Source: a virus (lineage: Duplodnaviria > Heunggongvirae > Uroviricota > Caudoviricetes). Taken from it: a stretch of 59,499 nt of DNA. Shown here piece by piece: positions 35,137 to 59,078 of the stretch. The stretch lies in IMG/VR virus record IMGVR_UViG_2874945390_000008; one strand, written 5' to 3'. The translations under genes and the position numbers were made by a program. Within the stretch, counting starts at the first letter, position 1; each line of letters begins with the position of its first letter. The notes under the pieces were generated by a model that saw nothing but the letters and a program-made list of their open reading frames with translations, was not told where the DNA came from and ran no database searches.

Positions 35137-35211
<75 letters not shown>

Positions 35212-35214
35212 ATA

Positions 35215-35290
<76 letters not shown>

Positions 35291-35292
35291 GC

Positions 35293-35369
35293 TGGCCCAC
35301 CACCGAGGACTCGAACCTCGCACCGTCAACTTAGAAGGTTGATGCTCTATCCGGATGAGCTAGTGGTGG
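35293..35369 (-). tRNA. tRNA-Arg (anticodon UCU)
   Basis: rc folds with acceptor CCACCAC/GTGGTGG, anticodon loop CTTCTAA, T-arm CGAGGTTCGAGTCCTCG, CCA end. Confidence 0.75.
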
Positions 35370-35370
35370 T

Positions 35371-35447
35371 TGGTGGCCCTTGCTGGACTTGAACCAGCGA
35401 CCTGGCGATTATGAGTCGCTCGCTCTGACCAACTGAGCTAAAGGGCC
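35371..35447 (-). tRNA. tRNA-Ile2-like (anticodon CAU; tRNA-Met not excluded by anticodon alone)
   Basis: rc = GGCCCTTTAGCTCAGTTGGTCAGAGCGAGCGACTCATAATCGCCAGGTCGCTGGTTCAAGTCCAGCAAGGGCCACCA, close to ileX as I recall it. Confidence 0.8.
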
Positions 35448-36212: not shown

Positions 36213-36470
36213 AACGACCTCGCGTTTCGATGGTTTTTAACTCACCACCTGCGACGCCAATCGCTGGGTGGTGAACTGTGCAGGGTTGGCGTAACCGGTC
36301 GAAACATCCGGCGAGTCTCTCAACTCCCCCACACAGCCCACCATAAATCGCGAATGTGACTGTGCTTAGCGCATAAAAAAACCGCCAGCGCGGTTATGCA
36401 CCGTTTTGAGGTAGCCTGAGTTTAACGGACACTCCTTCCTGAAATAGAATGGCATCAGAAGGAGCTAATA

Positions 36471-36808: not shown

Positions 36809-37627
36809 ATGTGTCAGGTATTTGGTGTATCCAGGAGCGGTTATTACAACTGGGTACAGCATGAACCCTCAGACAGAAAACAAAGTGATGAGCGGCTAAA
36901 ACTGGAGATTAAGGTGGCACATATCCGCACTCGCGAAACATATGGAACCCGGCGGCTCCAGACGGAGCTGGCAGAGAATGGCATCATCGTTGGTCGTGAC
37001 CGACTGGCACGTCTTCGTAAGGAGCTAAGGCTACGCTGTAAGCAGAAACGCAAGTTCAGAGCGACTACGAACCCGAACCACAATCTGCCAGTTGCGCCAA
37101 ATCTGCTGAACCAGACGTTCGCTCCTACAGCACCAAATCAGGTCTGGGTGGCGGACCTGACGTATGTTGCCACACAGGAGGGATGGTTGTACCTCGCTGG
37201 CATCAAAGATGTTTATACGTGCGAAATTGTCGGCTACGCCATGGGAGAGCGCATGACAAAAGAGCTGACAGGTAAAGCCCTGTTTATGGCGCTCAGGAGC
37301 CAGCGCCCACCTGCCGGGCTAATCCACCACTCTGATCGAGGTTCACAGTACTGCGCATACGATTACCGGGTCATACAGGAGCAGTTTGGTCTGAAAACAT
37401 CAATGTCGCGTAAAGGTAACTGTTACGACAACGCTCCGATGGAAAGCTTCTGGGGAACGCTGAAAAATGAGAGCCTGAGCCACTATCGTTTTAATAACCG
37501 GGATGAAGCCATCTCAGTAATACGGGAATACATTGAGATTTTCTACAATCGTCAGCGTCGTCACTCTCGTCTGGGGAATATCTCCCCGGCAGCCTTCAGG
37601 GAAAAATATCATCAGATGGCTGCTTAA
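36809..37627 (+). CDS. IS600 OrfB (made as OrfAB by -1 frameshift; track start is the first in-frame ATG)
   Basis: DDE transposase ...WVADLTYVATQEGWLYLAGIKDVYTCEIVGYAM...; -1 frame is open from the A-run. Confidence 0.85.
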   Translation: MCQVFGVSRSGYYNWVQHEPSDRKQSDERLKLEIKVAHIRTRETYGTRRLQTELAENGIIVGRDRLARLRKELRLRCKQKRKFRATTNPNHNLPVAPNLLNQTFAPTAPNQVWVADLTYVATQEGWLYLAGIKDVYTCEIVGYAMGERMTKELTGKALFMALRSQRPPAGLIHHSDRGSQYCAYDYRVIQEQFGLKTSMSRKGNCYDNAPMESFWGTLKNESLSHYRFNNRDEAISVIREYIEIFYNRQRRHSRLGNISPAAFREKYHQMAA

Positions 37628-37674
37628 AAAAAGAACAAATGGTAGTGTCCGCTATTGCCAGTACACCTCATTTC

Positions 37675-37735
37675 GATATCCGGGACGCCAATCCCGACGC
37701 CAGATTTTGCTGGCGCGTGAGGAATATAGCCCCGG
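37675..37735. repeat. ~60-bp conserved element, copy 1
   Basis: catccgggacgccaatcccgacgccagattttgctggcgcgtgaggaatatagccccgga also at 40940..41000; contains hairpin cgccag-attttg-ctggcg. Confidence 0.7.
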
Positions 37736-39227: not shown

Positions 39228-39515
39228 TCAATCCTGCTCAAGATTGTAGATGAGTTTATTCTTCAGCAAAAGCAGAAAACCAGCCTTAAAACCAATCTCT
39301 TTCAAAACCCGTAATGATGTGACAAATTCGTCCTCACGCAAAATAAAACCGTCCGTCAGAAGTCCATTACAAAAATAAAATAACACAGCACCGCTCTTCC
39401 TTTGTTGAGATTGCAAACATCTAATGCGGCAATGGCTGACAATCGCTCCATTCTCAACGCGCACAGCATAGAGGCCATTTTCACTAAAAATTTCACGCAA
39501 TTCTTCGATTTTCAT
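39228..39515 (-). CDS. Hypothetical phage protein
   Basis: 95-aa ORF. Confidence 0.3.
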   Translation of the reverse strand: MKIEELREIFSENGLYAVRVENGAIVSHCRIRCLQSQQRKSGAVLFYFCNGLLTDGFILREDEFVTSLRVLKEIGFKAGFLLLLKNKLIYNLEQD

Positions 39516-39644
39516 CTTCAGAATCCTTCCAGATAAATAGCTCTCCCCTGTTCGGGGTCCATCCCTCTTCTCCCTGCGCGCTACTTAAGTGAGTCGATTC
39601 TATCTGCGAAGGTGCGCGAATCAAATTCACCGGAAATAAACAAC

Positions 39645-39695
39645 AAAAAACCCGCCGAAACGCTGAGAGATCACAGCGATGGGCGGGTTAAGTGC
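39645..39695 (-). terminator. Terminator at the 3' end of the hok transcript
   Basis: Minus strand aaCCCGCC...GGCGGGtttttt. Confidence 0.5.
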
Positions 39696-39764
39696 GGGTG
39701 CGTTGAGGATGCCTGACACATCAGAGGTGGGCGGGGATGGGATCAGCTCCCCGCCCGGTCACTC

Positions 39765-39920
39765 TTACTTCCTGGATTCGTAGTCTACGAAGACAGCGAC
39801 CTCCGTCTGGCCGGTTCGGATTCGTACCTCACAGAGGTCTTTCCTCGTTACCAGTGCCGTCACTATGACGGTTAAACAGATGACGATCAGGGCGACTAAC
39901 ATCGCCTTTTGCTGCTTCAT
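39765..39920 (-). CDS. hok: Hok/Gef-family type I toxin
   Basis: MKQQKAMLVALIVICLTVIVTALVTRKDLCEVRIRTGQTEVAVFVDYESRK; track ORF has a 19-codon in-frame upstream extension. Confidence 0.85.
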   Translation of the reverse strand: MKQQKAMLVALIVICLTVIVTALVTRKDLCEVRIRTGQTEVAVFVDYESRK

Positions 39921-40149
39921 AGCCTGCTTCTCCTTGCCTTCCGGCACGTAAGAGGCTAACCTACATGTGTCTAGCATGAAATTGGCCTCAGATTAATGTT
40001 AAGCGTCTTGCAGGACGCGTAATGTTAACTGGGGCTTCTCATCTGCCTTTTGGTGTTCATGCCTGAGACAGATAGCCTCAAGCACCCGCAGCAATTCTAC
40101 TTAACTTCCCTTTCACCGCAAATCATTTTATCCCCGGTGGTAATGTTCT

Positions 40150-40175
40150 CCCGATATGGGAATTCCCATATCGGG
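40150..40175. repeat. 26-bp perfect palindrome between the copy-Y gene and the hok leader
   Basis: cccgatatgggaattcccatatcggg. Confidence 0.8.
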
Positions 40176-40189
40176 GCTAATTTAACCAG

Positions 40190-40735
40190 TTAAAGCTCCA
40201 TTAATTTTCCGGCAAGTTCATCTCGCGGCATTACCAGCCATCCGCGCGATTTAAGCAACATCAGGGCTTCTTCAACCGTCACCAGCTGACCAGGCGCATA
40301 ACTTCGGATGAAGGCAGTTTTATCATCACGGATCGCCAGGTGAATATCGATGTTCATTTTCCCCGTAGCCCGATCTTTCTCGTACTGGTTGAAGTAGCAG
40401 TCTTCCAATTTTTCGAATACTTCCCACGCCTGATCGGTTTCGAGCATTTTAGCGTGACGTGCTGCTCCGCGTTCTGTCCAGAGAATGAGGGAGCGAACGT
40501 TACGGGCAATTTTCACAGACTCGCTTAAAGATAGTCTGTGCTTCATACCTCTAAGCTCATCGCCCACTAACTTATAAAAATGCTTACCTTCAATAAAACG
40601 TTCAGCGTTTCTGGCGTGATTTTGCTGAATGCGAATCGCTTCTGTGCCGTACAACTGCGCCAAAAGTTCAGTGGTAATAACAGGTATCTGGTTATGGGCG
40701 ATCGGGGAGAGAGTTTCAACAGAGATTTGAGTGGT
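40190..40735 (-). CDS. Phage antirepressor-like DNA-binding protein (ORF6N-type, copy Y)
   Basis: MTTQISVETLSPIAHNQIPVITTELLAQLYGTE...; paralogue of 35655..36212. Confidence 0.5.
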   Translation of the reverse strand, partial: TTQISVETLSPIAHNQIPVITTELLAQLYGTEAIRIQQNHARNAERFIEGKHFYKLVGDELRGMKHRLSLSESVKIARNVRSLILWTERGAARHAKMLETDQAWEVFEKLEDCYFNQYEKDRATGKMNIDIHLAIRDDKTAFIRSYAPGQLVTVEEALMLLKSRGWLVMPRDELAGKLMEL

Positions 40736-40889
40736 CATAACGATAACTCCGTACATTTGGAAATTATCGCCACCGACGACGCCAATCGAACTGGTGGCGA
40801 ACTGTGCAGGGTTGGCGTAACCGGGTACGGAAACCGGCGAGCCTTTCGGCTCCCCCACACAGCCCGCCATAAATCGCGAATGTGACTGT

Positions 40890-40915
40890 GCAAACGATAT
40901 GAAAAAAGACGCGGA
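40890..40915 (-). terminator. Hairpin plus T-run upstream of copy Y
   Basis: Minus strand AGACGCGtccGCGTCTtttttc. Confidence 0.4.
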
Positions 40916-40939
40916 CGCGTCTCATATCGCTCCGTAAAC

Positions 40940-41000
40940 ATCCGGGACGCCAATCCCGACGCCAGATTTTGCTGGCGCGTGAGGAATATAGCCCCGGATT
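40940..41000. repeat. ~60-bp conserved element, copy 2
   Basis: Same sequence as 37675..37735. Confidence 0.7.
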
Positions 41001-50835: not shown

Positions 50836-51105
50836 AAAGTGAATTTTGTGATGCGGTGAATGCGGCTCAGCGCACGCGGAACAGTTAAAACAGTAAGGAA
50901 AATCCCTTATTCCGGCGTTAATTATTAACTGGTTAACGTCACCTGGAGGCACCAGGCACCGCATCAACAAAGTTCACTTCGGTGATGAAAGGAAAGAGAA
51001 AATGTTGAATGTAGCTATTGAAAACCAGAACGGGTGGAATTATAGTGCACCTGCACCTCATAAAACGGGTGCCGGGATTGCTACCCCGAAGTCATTCACG
51101 GCGCA

Positions 51106-51128
51106 TAACCGCGCTCAGGCGGTTTTTT
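51106..51128 (+). terminator. Hairpin plus T7 terminator upstream of the Rha-like gene
   Basis: aaccgcgctcaggcggttttttta. Confidence 0.5.
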
Positions 51129-51295
51129 TATGCGTAATGCACAGCCACATTCAAATTATGGTGGGGCGTGCGGGGCAGTCGCAAGACTGGCCGGGTTCCG
51201 TGATGACCGGTTGTAGCAACCCTGTACGTCTCACCACCCATGAGATTGCTACCTCCGGTGGTGAGTTAATCACATTCATCGCGGAGGCTGCCATC

Positions 51296-57146: not shown

Positions 57147-57335
57147 ATGTATAAAATTACAGCCACTATTGAAAAGGAAGGTGGTTCTCCTGCCAGCTGG
57201 ACAAGATACTCAAAGACAAAACTAACGAAATCAGAATGCGAAAAAATGCTCTCAGGGGAAAAAGAAGCAGGCGTTTCCAGAGAGCAGAAAGTAAAACTGA
57301 TAAATTTTAATTGCGAGAAACTTCAGTCCTCGTGA
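57147..57335 (+). CDS. Hypothetical small protein
   Basis: MYKITATIEKEGGSPASWTRYSK...; ATG after GGAGG. Confidence 0.35.
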   Translation: MYKITATIEKEGGSPASWTRYSKTKLTKSECEKMLSGEKEAGVSREQKVKLINFNCEKLQSS

Positions 57336-58765: not shown

Positions 58766-58896
58766 TTTTAACGTAAATGGATTGTTAAATGTATTTTGGT
58801 TGTGATATAACCAAAAAAGACCGGAATACAGAAATTCGAGTAAATTTCGGGGAATTTCGGGGAAGCATTTGTAACTAATTGATTTCAAATGCAATT

Positions 58897-58999
58897 AAAA
58901 AAAGACCGAATACGATTCCTGTATTCGGTCCAGGGAAATGGCTCTTGGGAGAGAGCCGTGCGCTAAAAGTTGGCATTAATGCAGGCTTAGTTGCCTTGC
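58897..58999 (-). ncRNA. sdsR: SdsR/RyeB-like small RNA
   Basis: Minus strand GCAAGGCAACTAAGCCTGCATTAATGCC...CCCTGGACCGAATACAGGAATCGTATTCGGTCTTTTTTT as I recall SdsR; terminal hairpin plus T-run. Confidence 0.55.
58904..58929. other. Putative attR core overlapping the sdsR 3' hairpin
   Basis: Direct imperfect repeat of 376..401; tandem aatttcgggg motif at 58845..58864 between int and the core. Confidence 0.4.
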
Positions 59000-59078
59000 C
59001 CTTTAAGAATAGATGACGACGCCAGGTTTTCCAGTTTGCGTGCAAAATGGTCAATAAAAAGCGCGGTGGTCATCAGCT

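Follow-up and report, generated by a model that had tools for sequence, protein, structure and literature searches.

Among the described type I toxin–antitoxin systems, the closest to the one considered here is the hokW–mokW–sokW locus of Stx phage 933W. Induction of HokW stops growth, and SokW RNA transcribed from its own promoter prevents this growth arrest; this protection is lost when the sokW promoter is mutated and is recovered in part when SokW is provided in trans (PMC8621323). HokW is 44% identical to the Hok protein of plasmid R1 (PMC8621323). A second described system, the BstA defence locus of prophage BTP1 (Owen et al. 2021), also bears on the region: BstA systems hold, within the bstA locus, a short DNA-based and variant-specific self-immunity element, aba, and only the element of BTP1 has been mapped (PMC8585504). 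In this work, we analysed a stretch of viral DNA of 59,499 nucleotides (Caudoviricetes; IMG/VR record IMGVR_UViG_2874945390_000008), referred to below as the window, in which a toxin gene of the Hok/Gef family on the minus strand is preceded by a perfect 26-bp palindrome.

Sequence comparison indicates that the palindrome very probably stems from BstA-like genes, to which it belongs as a conserved hairpin-forming element, and is present here as an orphan copy that is no component of the hok leader. The hok region itself is almost certainly a complete hok/mok/sok type I toxin–antitoxin cassette of the hokW/hokD lineage, and both the system and its type of location are familiar.

The palindrome, CCCGATATGGGAATTCCCATATCGGG, occupies positions 40150–40175 (inverted repeat I4), as the initial annotation had noted. 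None of 100 shuffles matched it, and no further copy or half-site was found in the window with up to three mismatches allowed. As single-stranded DNA, it folds with an energy of −11.9 kcal/mol (z = −5.1) into a stem of 11–13 bp with a 4-nt loop. The palindrome had been placed at the upstream end of the hok leader; relative to the predicted transcription start at ~40087, it lies 63–88 nt upstream, beyond the promoter, with 28 nt separating it from the −35 hexamer, and is thus outside the predicted hok transcript. It is also outside the DNA block common to the window and 933W. A literature search with the literal palindrome sequence gave irrelevant matches only, and a paper on the Rac prophage regulator YdaT contains no motif resembling it.

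A BLAST search revealed a 44-nt relic of the KilA-N/BstA family at positions 40152–40195 of the plus strand, with 88.6% identity to the interior of the coding sequence (CDS) of a KilA-N gene of E. coli strain 7/2. Because the similarity to KilA-N genes does not end with the palindrome and runs 18–20 nt past it, to position 40195, the palindrome is best regarded as a fragment of a bstA gene. The plus strand of the window still reads ..GAT ATG GGA ATT CCC ATA TCG GGG CTA ATT TAA.., corresponding to DMGIPISGLI*. The gene of strain 7/2, located on the strand opposite hok, reads ...ELSRDMGIPISELIQSFKGG..., and its palindrome encodes the residues DMGIPIS inside the Pfam KilA-N domain. This gene matches PHROG 6287 "BstA abortive infection" over its full length (2.7e-89) and the PADLOC BstA profile (3.2e-21), and the C-terminal half of the 7/2-type protein (WP_000200358) is ~32% identical to BstA of BTP1. 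A profile search of the 59-kb window detected no encoded BstA or KilA-N homologue, and the copy of the palindrome in the window is therefore an orphan.

With a 96-nt query spanning the palindrome and its surroundings, matches were obtained in 329 of 5,426 complete E. coli genomes, and they fall into three contexts. In the first, found in 157 genomes, the palindrome stands between the stop codon of an ORF6N gene and hok. In the second, the hok-linked block adjoins unrelated upstream DNA, as in strain E423, where it lies next to a divergent kinase gene. In the third, the match is inside a KilA-N-domain CDS (44 nt at 88.6% identity). Strain 7/2 combines an intact bstA-like gene with a hok cassette located ~350 bp away, the two being divergent. 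Of the functions initially suggested for the palindrome, a recombination site comes nearest, since the palindrome marks a mosaic junction; the evidence shows a fragment of a BstA-like KilA-N gene.

In intact BstA-like genes, the palindrome is a selected nucleic-acid element, to judge from codon usage and pairing. To collect such genes, we used a protein-based IMG/VR search, which is free of codon-choice bias and gave 80 loci (L151–L230). The palindrome lies at codons 57–66 of the subfamily genes (L005 944–1717 (−), L151–L230), within a hairpin-forming element of ~45 nt at codons 55–69. Among 31 distinct genes encoding DMGIPI(S/T), the median pairwise synonymous codon difference is 54%, and of the 149 degenerate codon columns with a conserved amino acid, just seven have an invariant codon. 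Three of these seven are the arm codons GAT, CCC, and ATA (hypergeometric P = 6.5e-5). The loop codons are free to vary, with GGA and GGG in a ratio of 15:16 and both ATT and ATC in use. The codon preceding GAT encodes R, S, T, or A, and yet in 30 of the 31 genes it ends in C, which base pairs with the G of TCG.

The pairing itself is also retained. In a 59%-identical homologue (L224), the segment DAGIPAS is encoded as GAT GCG GGA ATT CCC GCA TCG, which is a perfect 24-bp palindrome in which two compensatory pair changes alter the amino acids (M to A and I to A). Over 23 distinct sequences, 92% of the inner-helix cells are paired; pair 17–28 is UA in 20 sequences, CG in three, and unpaired in none. 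The outer 6-bp helix, GAATTA/TAATTC, shows mainly G·U-compatible variation on the sense strand. Between −150 and +830, nucleotide diversity reaches its minimum at positions +183 to +204, which corresponds to the palindrome and the next 20 nt, and the 5′ end and upstream region of the bstA-like locus showed no conservation over the same interval. Recognisable versions of the palindrome are present in a KilA-N gene of a Bacteroides phage (LoVEphage) and in a BstA-like gene of a Proteus phage; in bstA of BTP1, no hairpin was found at the homologous codons.

Orphan palindromes upstream of hok are present in ~900 of the 5,426 E. coli genomes when the short and window-type variants are taken together. 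In the short form, which is the commonest, the palindrome abuts the hok upstream block; it was found in 725 of these genomes, with up to six copies per genome, notably in enterohaemorrhagic E. coli. The distance from the palindrome centre to the hok start is 75 nt in the window type and 57 nt in the commonest variant. The left flanks of the hok-linked copies vary from one variant to another, with an ORF6N stop, a paa/adfO context, or a kinase context, and decayed bstA similarity remains in them.

Orphan copies are not confined to hok loci. A 54-nt insertion bearing the palindrome occurs in about half of the listed records of Dhillonvirus, a virulent siphophage, just after the stop codon of the helicase-primase gene. 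The insertion is made up of a duplicated flank of 29 nt and 25 nt containing the palindrome, and its site is set in ATTGGTTGCC repeats (L231 1470–1560; L235, L236, L238–L246). Phages SSL-2009a, SO-1, and HK578 carry the empty site, and the flanks of the insertion showed no homology to bstA. A comparison of ten filled genomes showed no variation in the inner stem TATGGG/CCCATA or in the right arm, and four forms of the 4-nt centre.

It should be noted that several observations weigh against the palindrome as a conserved functional element. Inside BstA-like genes, the covariation support is modest, as 3–4 of 500 shuffles reach the observed values and few divergent sequences are available. Among the hok-linked IMG/VR loci, 14 of 96 have a 1-nt deletion in the palindrome. 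Moreover, the search patterns used to pick this sample contained part of the palindrome itself; the conservation seen in it is therefore biased and cannot serve as a measure. The outer left arm of the palindrome is decayed in phages B2, Shigella phage 1b, and NJ01. Such damaged orphan copies fit weak or no selection outside bstA.

The presence of broken copies leads to the first explanation for the orphan palindrome, namely that it is a neutral scar left by deletions or illegitimate recombination ending at the palindrome, the fragment having hitch-hiked with the hok cassette through lambdoid prophages. We consider this a serious possibility with a somewhat less than even chance of being correct. 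The arrangement in strain 7/2, with a bstA-like gene divergent from hok at a distance of ~350 bp, would be a simple ancestral layout; homology to the bstA flank survives on one side only; and one deletion of ~19 nt could separate the window-type and short variants. A scar leaves unexplained how Dhillonvirus independently gained a bare copy, nor does it account for the contrast between a strongly diverged left flank and a perfect 20-bp core in most hok-linked variants, although the latter comes from the biased sample.

According to the second explanation, the palindrome is an aba-like anti-BstA immunity or decoy element, i.e., a DNA site recognised by KilA-N/BstA-type proteins; we regard this as unlikely. 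On this reading, prophages and some virulent phages that lack bstA would keep or capture the palindrome in order to replicate where a resident prophage expresses the cognate BstA. Consistent with such a role, BstA systems carry a short self-immunity element, no other part of the locus is as conserved in this BstA-like subfamily as the palindrome region, and the copy in the window is an orphan. The palindrome has been kept at the hok boundary over at least three different left junctions, and a bare 25-nt copy was inserted in Dhillonvirus genomes devoid of bstA flank homology. On the other hand, it does not resemble aba of BTP1, and the subfamily is distant from the tested BstA proteins, the ~32% identity being limited to the C-terminal half. 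Within bstA, the G·U-type changes seen in the outer helix on the sense strand may point to a function as RNA and not as DNA, and orphan copies decay in some lineages. No further mapping of aba was found in the later BstA literature available. Phage HK022 Roi is reported to bind a site within its own gene (Clerget and Boccard, 1996).

If the palindrome were an immunity or decoy site, it would be an example of phages stealing the self-recognition signal of a defence system. Its bare copies, both those beside hok in lambdoid prophages and those in the virulent Dhillonvirus, would then act in counter-defence as DNA decoys in BstA-protected cells. The palindrome provides a precise candidate of 26–44 bp for phage or phagemid assays of BstA self-immunity.

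The third explanation assigns the palindrome to RNA. It could form a hairpin at the 3′ end of the transcript comprising isrK, C4, and the ORF6N anti-repressor, which it would terminate or stabilise, thereby shielding the hok promoter and 5′ end from read-through. The palindrome lies 14 nt past the ORF6N stop on the same strand, its 11–13-bp stem with a 4-nt loop is stable, and the Dhillonvirus copy is likewise situated just past a gene stop. The hok mechanism relies on the exact 5′ end of the mRNA, which carries the element tac, and read-through from upstream would therefore be harmful. Nevertheless, we find this explanation improbable. There is no U-tract beside the stem on either strand (AGAACAUUACC; GCUAAUUUAACC), and a consensus promoter and terminator scan over 39500–40400, whose thresholds exclude loops of more than 8 nt and −35 hexamers agreeing at 3/6 positions, gave no terminator. 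Most hok-linked copies have a different or divergent upstream gene, as in E423 with its kinase gene on the opposite strand, and hokW of 933W functions in a locus that has no palindrome. The insulating terminator envisaged in the initial annotation, understood as a canonical intrinsic (Rho-independent) terminator, was rejected on account of the missing U-tract and the unrelated upstream genes of other copies. Identification of the palindrome with the annotated terminator of Dhillonvirus CS16 was also rejected, as that feature lies elsewhere.

The initially proposed operator, at which a dimeric regulator would act on the hok promoter, is very improbable: the palindrome is a perfect 26-bp dyad 28 nt upstream of the −35 hexamer, but its centre-to-start distances of 75 and 57 nt are not whole helical turns apart, neither the functional hokW locus nor many of the hokD loci contain it, copies of it are found within coding sequences and in phages of other kinds, and control of hok/sok is post-transcriptional.

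The hok part of the locus can be described by reference to 933W. The region from ~40135 to 39683 is ~91% identical in DNA to the hokW–mokW–sokW locus of 933W and its relatives (443 nt), and the 933W record annotates mokW, hokW, and the SokW antisense RNA. The hok toxin CDS (39765–39920, minus strand) encodes a HokW/HokD-type protein of 51 amino acids; its assignment to the Hok/Gef family, made in the initial annotation, is confirmed by Pfam PF01848 (HOK_GEF; E = 2.6e-23, 81.8 bits at a cut-off of 22). The protein is identical to HokW of 933W/Sp5 at 49 of 51 positions, with two differences, and its homologues are labelled hokD or Hok/Gef family in RefSeq. The open reading frame list contains an in-frame upstream extension of hok, the 70-codon mok frame (39765–39977, minus strand), onto which the annotated mokW of 933W maps (39977–39765; alignment A1). 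The mok frame has its own ATG at 39977–39975 and its own Shine–Dalgarno (SD) sequence, GAGG, at 39989–39986, 8 nt 5′ of the ATG.

The full-length hok mRNA is predicted, from the Rfam match and from folding, to be ~442 nt long (39646–40087, minus strand). Its transcription probably starts at ~40087, since the Rfam model begins there, hokW homology supports this position, and a −10 hexamer TAGAAT is located at 40099–40094. The leader would thus extend from 40087 to 39921 and measure 167 nt, instead of the ~270 bp estimated initially. The predicted hok promoter (40094–40121, minus strand), read from the sequence, comprises a −35 hexamer TTGCGG (40121–40116), a 16-nt spacer, the −10 hexamer, and 6 nt to the start; this block is kept in 933W, RMDEC465, and others. 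In the hok/sok family, the hok promoter is weak and the sok promoter is stronger. In the consensus scan, neither the hok nor the Sok promoter scored; the hok promoter fell below the threshold because its −35 hexamer agrees at only 3/6 positions. As these thresholds proved too strict, the promoters and the terminator were placed by homology and folding.

The Sok antisense RNA can be located through the 933W annotation. SokW maps to positions 39969–40039 of the plus strand (alignment A1), which gives a predicted Sok of 71 nt, 63 of them identical to SokW. The predicted RNA has a 5′ tail over the mok AUG and SD sequence followed by a long hairpin (−31.6 kcal/mol, z = −6.2), and it is complementary in full to the SD/AUG region of mok. 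Its predicted promoter (39934–39962, plus strand) consists of a −35 hexamer TTGCCT (39934–39939), a 17-nt spacer, and a −10 hexamer TAACCT (39957–39962), and in this stretch the window and 933W show no differences.

Rfam model RF01794, "sok antitoxin (CssrC)", matches positions 39915–40087 of the minus strand and scores 96.3 bits, well above its gathering score of 59. The alignment covers model positions 1–157 of 157, from the tac sequence GGGUGCUUGAGG to the hok AUG. Since the match lies on the hok-sense strand and spans tac to the hok AUG, RF01794 is a model of the leader of the hok mRNA, which Sok targets, and not of the antisense RNA, which lies on the opposite strand within the same interval. 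Annotations that take over the Rfam strand of RF01794 would mislabel Sok.

Folding of the RNA from 40087 to 39646 gave a minimum free energy of −186.1 kcal/mol (z = −7.6). In the minimum free energy and centroid folds alike, tac at the 5′ end of the mRNA (40076–40087, minus strand; inverted repeats I3 and I20) is predicted to form 12 pairs with the fold-back inhibition element fbi, CCUCAACGCACCC, near the 3′ end (39696–39708, minus strand). When the 3′ end is cut before fbi, the predicted 5′ end switches to a local hairpin. This predicted switch agrees qualitatively with the refolding of R1 hok mRNA, which, according to the Gerdes laboratory, is reportedly triggered by processing. Both elements are nearly invariant among 74 distinct related cassettes, 67 of which carry CCTCAA[C/T]GCACCC at the fbi position.

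The hok terminator, with the stem ACCCGCC/GGCGGGU followed by a T-run, was placed at 39645–39689 of the minus strand by alignment with RMDEC465 and by folding. A G+C-rich hairpin is located between the hok open reading frame and this terminator hairpin on the same strand. In comparison with RMDEC465 and most relatives, the terminator loop contains a 22-nt insertion (~39661–39682), which folds as a small hairpin of its own and is found in identical form in two IMG/VR loci (L008 and L027). The simple terminator scan missed the site because the insertion enlarges the loop.

We infer the start sites, processing, and toxicity of the window copy by homology with R1 hok/sok and the experimentally studied hokW–sokW. 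Transcription from the weak promoter would produce the ~442-nt hok mRNA, in which tac pairs with fbi, so that the full-length RNA would be inaccessible both to translation and to Sok. Gradual trimming from the 3′ end would take off fbi and allow the 5′ region to refold. In the refolded RNA, mok and, with it, hok would become translatable as long as Sok, an RNA of short lifetime, is missing. Sok has a promoter of its own on the other strand; it would pair with the mok RNA over the ribosome-binding site and the start codon, and the resulting duplex would be destroyed. Once Sok synthesis ends, Hok would be made and would damage the inner membrane.

Overall, the data support the mok/sok-type antisense control and the hairpin terminator that had been anticipated in the initial annotation. 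Its description of hok as standalone does not hold, as an in-frame mok, Sok with its promoter, tac and fbi, and the terminator are all present, and Sok, which it had been unable to place, has a position. Three points qualify this picture. The tac–fbi pairing is backed by energy and homology, with no covariation; both elements hardly vary, and a covariation test is therefore uninformative. The U-tail of the Sok terminator is shorter and weaker in the window (GGGGCUUCUCAUCU) than in SokW (GGGGCUUUUCUCU) and could alter regulation, as could the 22-nt insertion in the hok terminator loop.

The locus lies in a nin-like region of a lambda-like (lambdoid) prophage. Read along the minus strand, isrK and C4 RNAs come first; they are followed by the gene for the ORF6N anti-repressor, then by the palindrome and hok/sok, a phrog_340 open reading frame, DUF1367, YbcO, and four tRNAs, the order running on toward the late genes. 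The ORF6N-domain anti-repressor-like gene occupies 40190–40738 of the minus strand, with an approximate start based on the length of its RefSeq homologues (Pfam ORF6N, 3.5e-20; PHROG 2379 anti-repressor, 2.2e-80), and its stop codon is at 40192–40190, on the same strand as hok. In RMDEC465, the closest relative from E. coli (L002 ~3040–3075), a 15-nt tandem duplication, CTTTAACTGGTTAAA, extends across the ORF6N stop just 5′ of the palindrome. Just past the hok terminator, a sigma-70-like site (TTGATT, 16-nt spacer, TAGAAT; 39597–39624, minus strand) precedes an open reading frame of 95 codons (39228–39515; PHROG 340, to which PHROG assigns no function).

Elsewhere in the window, immunity/anti-repressor modules with C4, isrK, and c4-a1b1 were located at 36264–36348 (−), 37627–37729 (−), 40790–40991 (−), and 51053–51241 (+). 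The P1-type C4 antisense RNA is present in three copies with isrK and/or c4-a1b1 targets, one of them inverted, which suggests several or rearranged lambdoid prophage segments. The four tRNAs form a cluster at 35140–35447 (−) on the downstream side of the nin-like genes, an arrangement known from lambdoid prophages of the Stx type. No complete E. coli genome matched more than 37% of the 30–50 kb part of the window, and the best matches carry IS600, IS1A, trkG, and ydaV; together with the RNAs listed next, this suggests that the window probably comes from a chromosome of Shigella or E. coli whose prophages are mosaic and partly degraded. Other RNAs include RalA, the antitoxin small RNA of RalR (Rac prophage type), at 57153–57331 (−), the SraC/RyeA–SdsR/RyeB pair at 58893–59037 (+/−), and CssrB at 1918–2100 (−).

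In comparison with known systems, the hok/sok part is routine, being one more copy of a well-studied family; as the locus is complete, its annotation should list mok and Sok besides hok. With hokW–mokW–sokW of 933W and the Sakai prophage Sp5, it shares the gene order, promoter, tac, Sok target, in-frame mok, hok, and fbi, as well as the same kind of lambdoid prophage location. In 933W, however, there is neither a palindrome nor a bstA relic upstream of hokW, and the CCCGC-TTCG-GCGGG-T-run terminator is absent downstream of it; the window differs, in turn, by its terminator-loop insertion and its shorter Sok U-tail. With hok/sok (parB) of plasmid R1 and hokA–E of K-12 (hokD = relF), the locus shares the logic of tac/fbi end-pairing, mok-coupled translation, and a short antisense RNA. 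It is distinguished from them by a mok that is an in-frame N-terminal extension of hok, and K-12 hokD, which has no leader and no sok, aligns with the window only from just 5′ of the hok AUG onward.

The likeness to the BstA/aba system of prophage BTP1 (Owen et al. 2021) consists in the parent gene of the palindrome, which belongs to the BstA family, and in the presence of a short conserved nucleic-acid element inside a defence locus. The aba element of BTP1 spans 63 bp across the start codon, is bounded by CCCGCC direct repeats, and is not palindromic (PMC8585504), whereas the element considered here is a hairpin-forming palindrome at codons 57–66. The window holds only a fragment of the gene, so that the palindrome is not within a bstA locus, and it bears no resemblance to aba of BTP1. 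Since aba elements are variant-specific (PMC8585504), this unlikeness leaves room for an analogous role of the palindrome in its own BstA-like subfamily.

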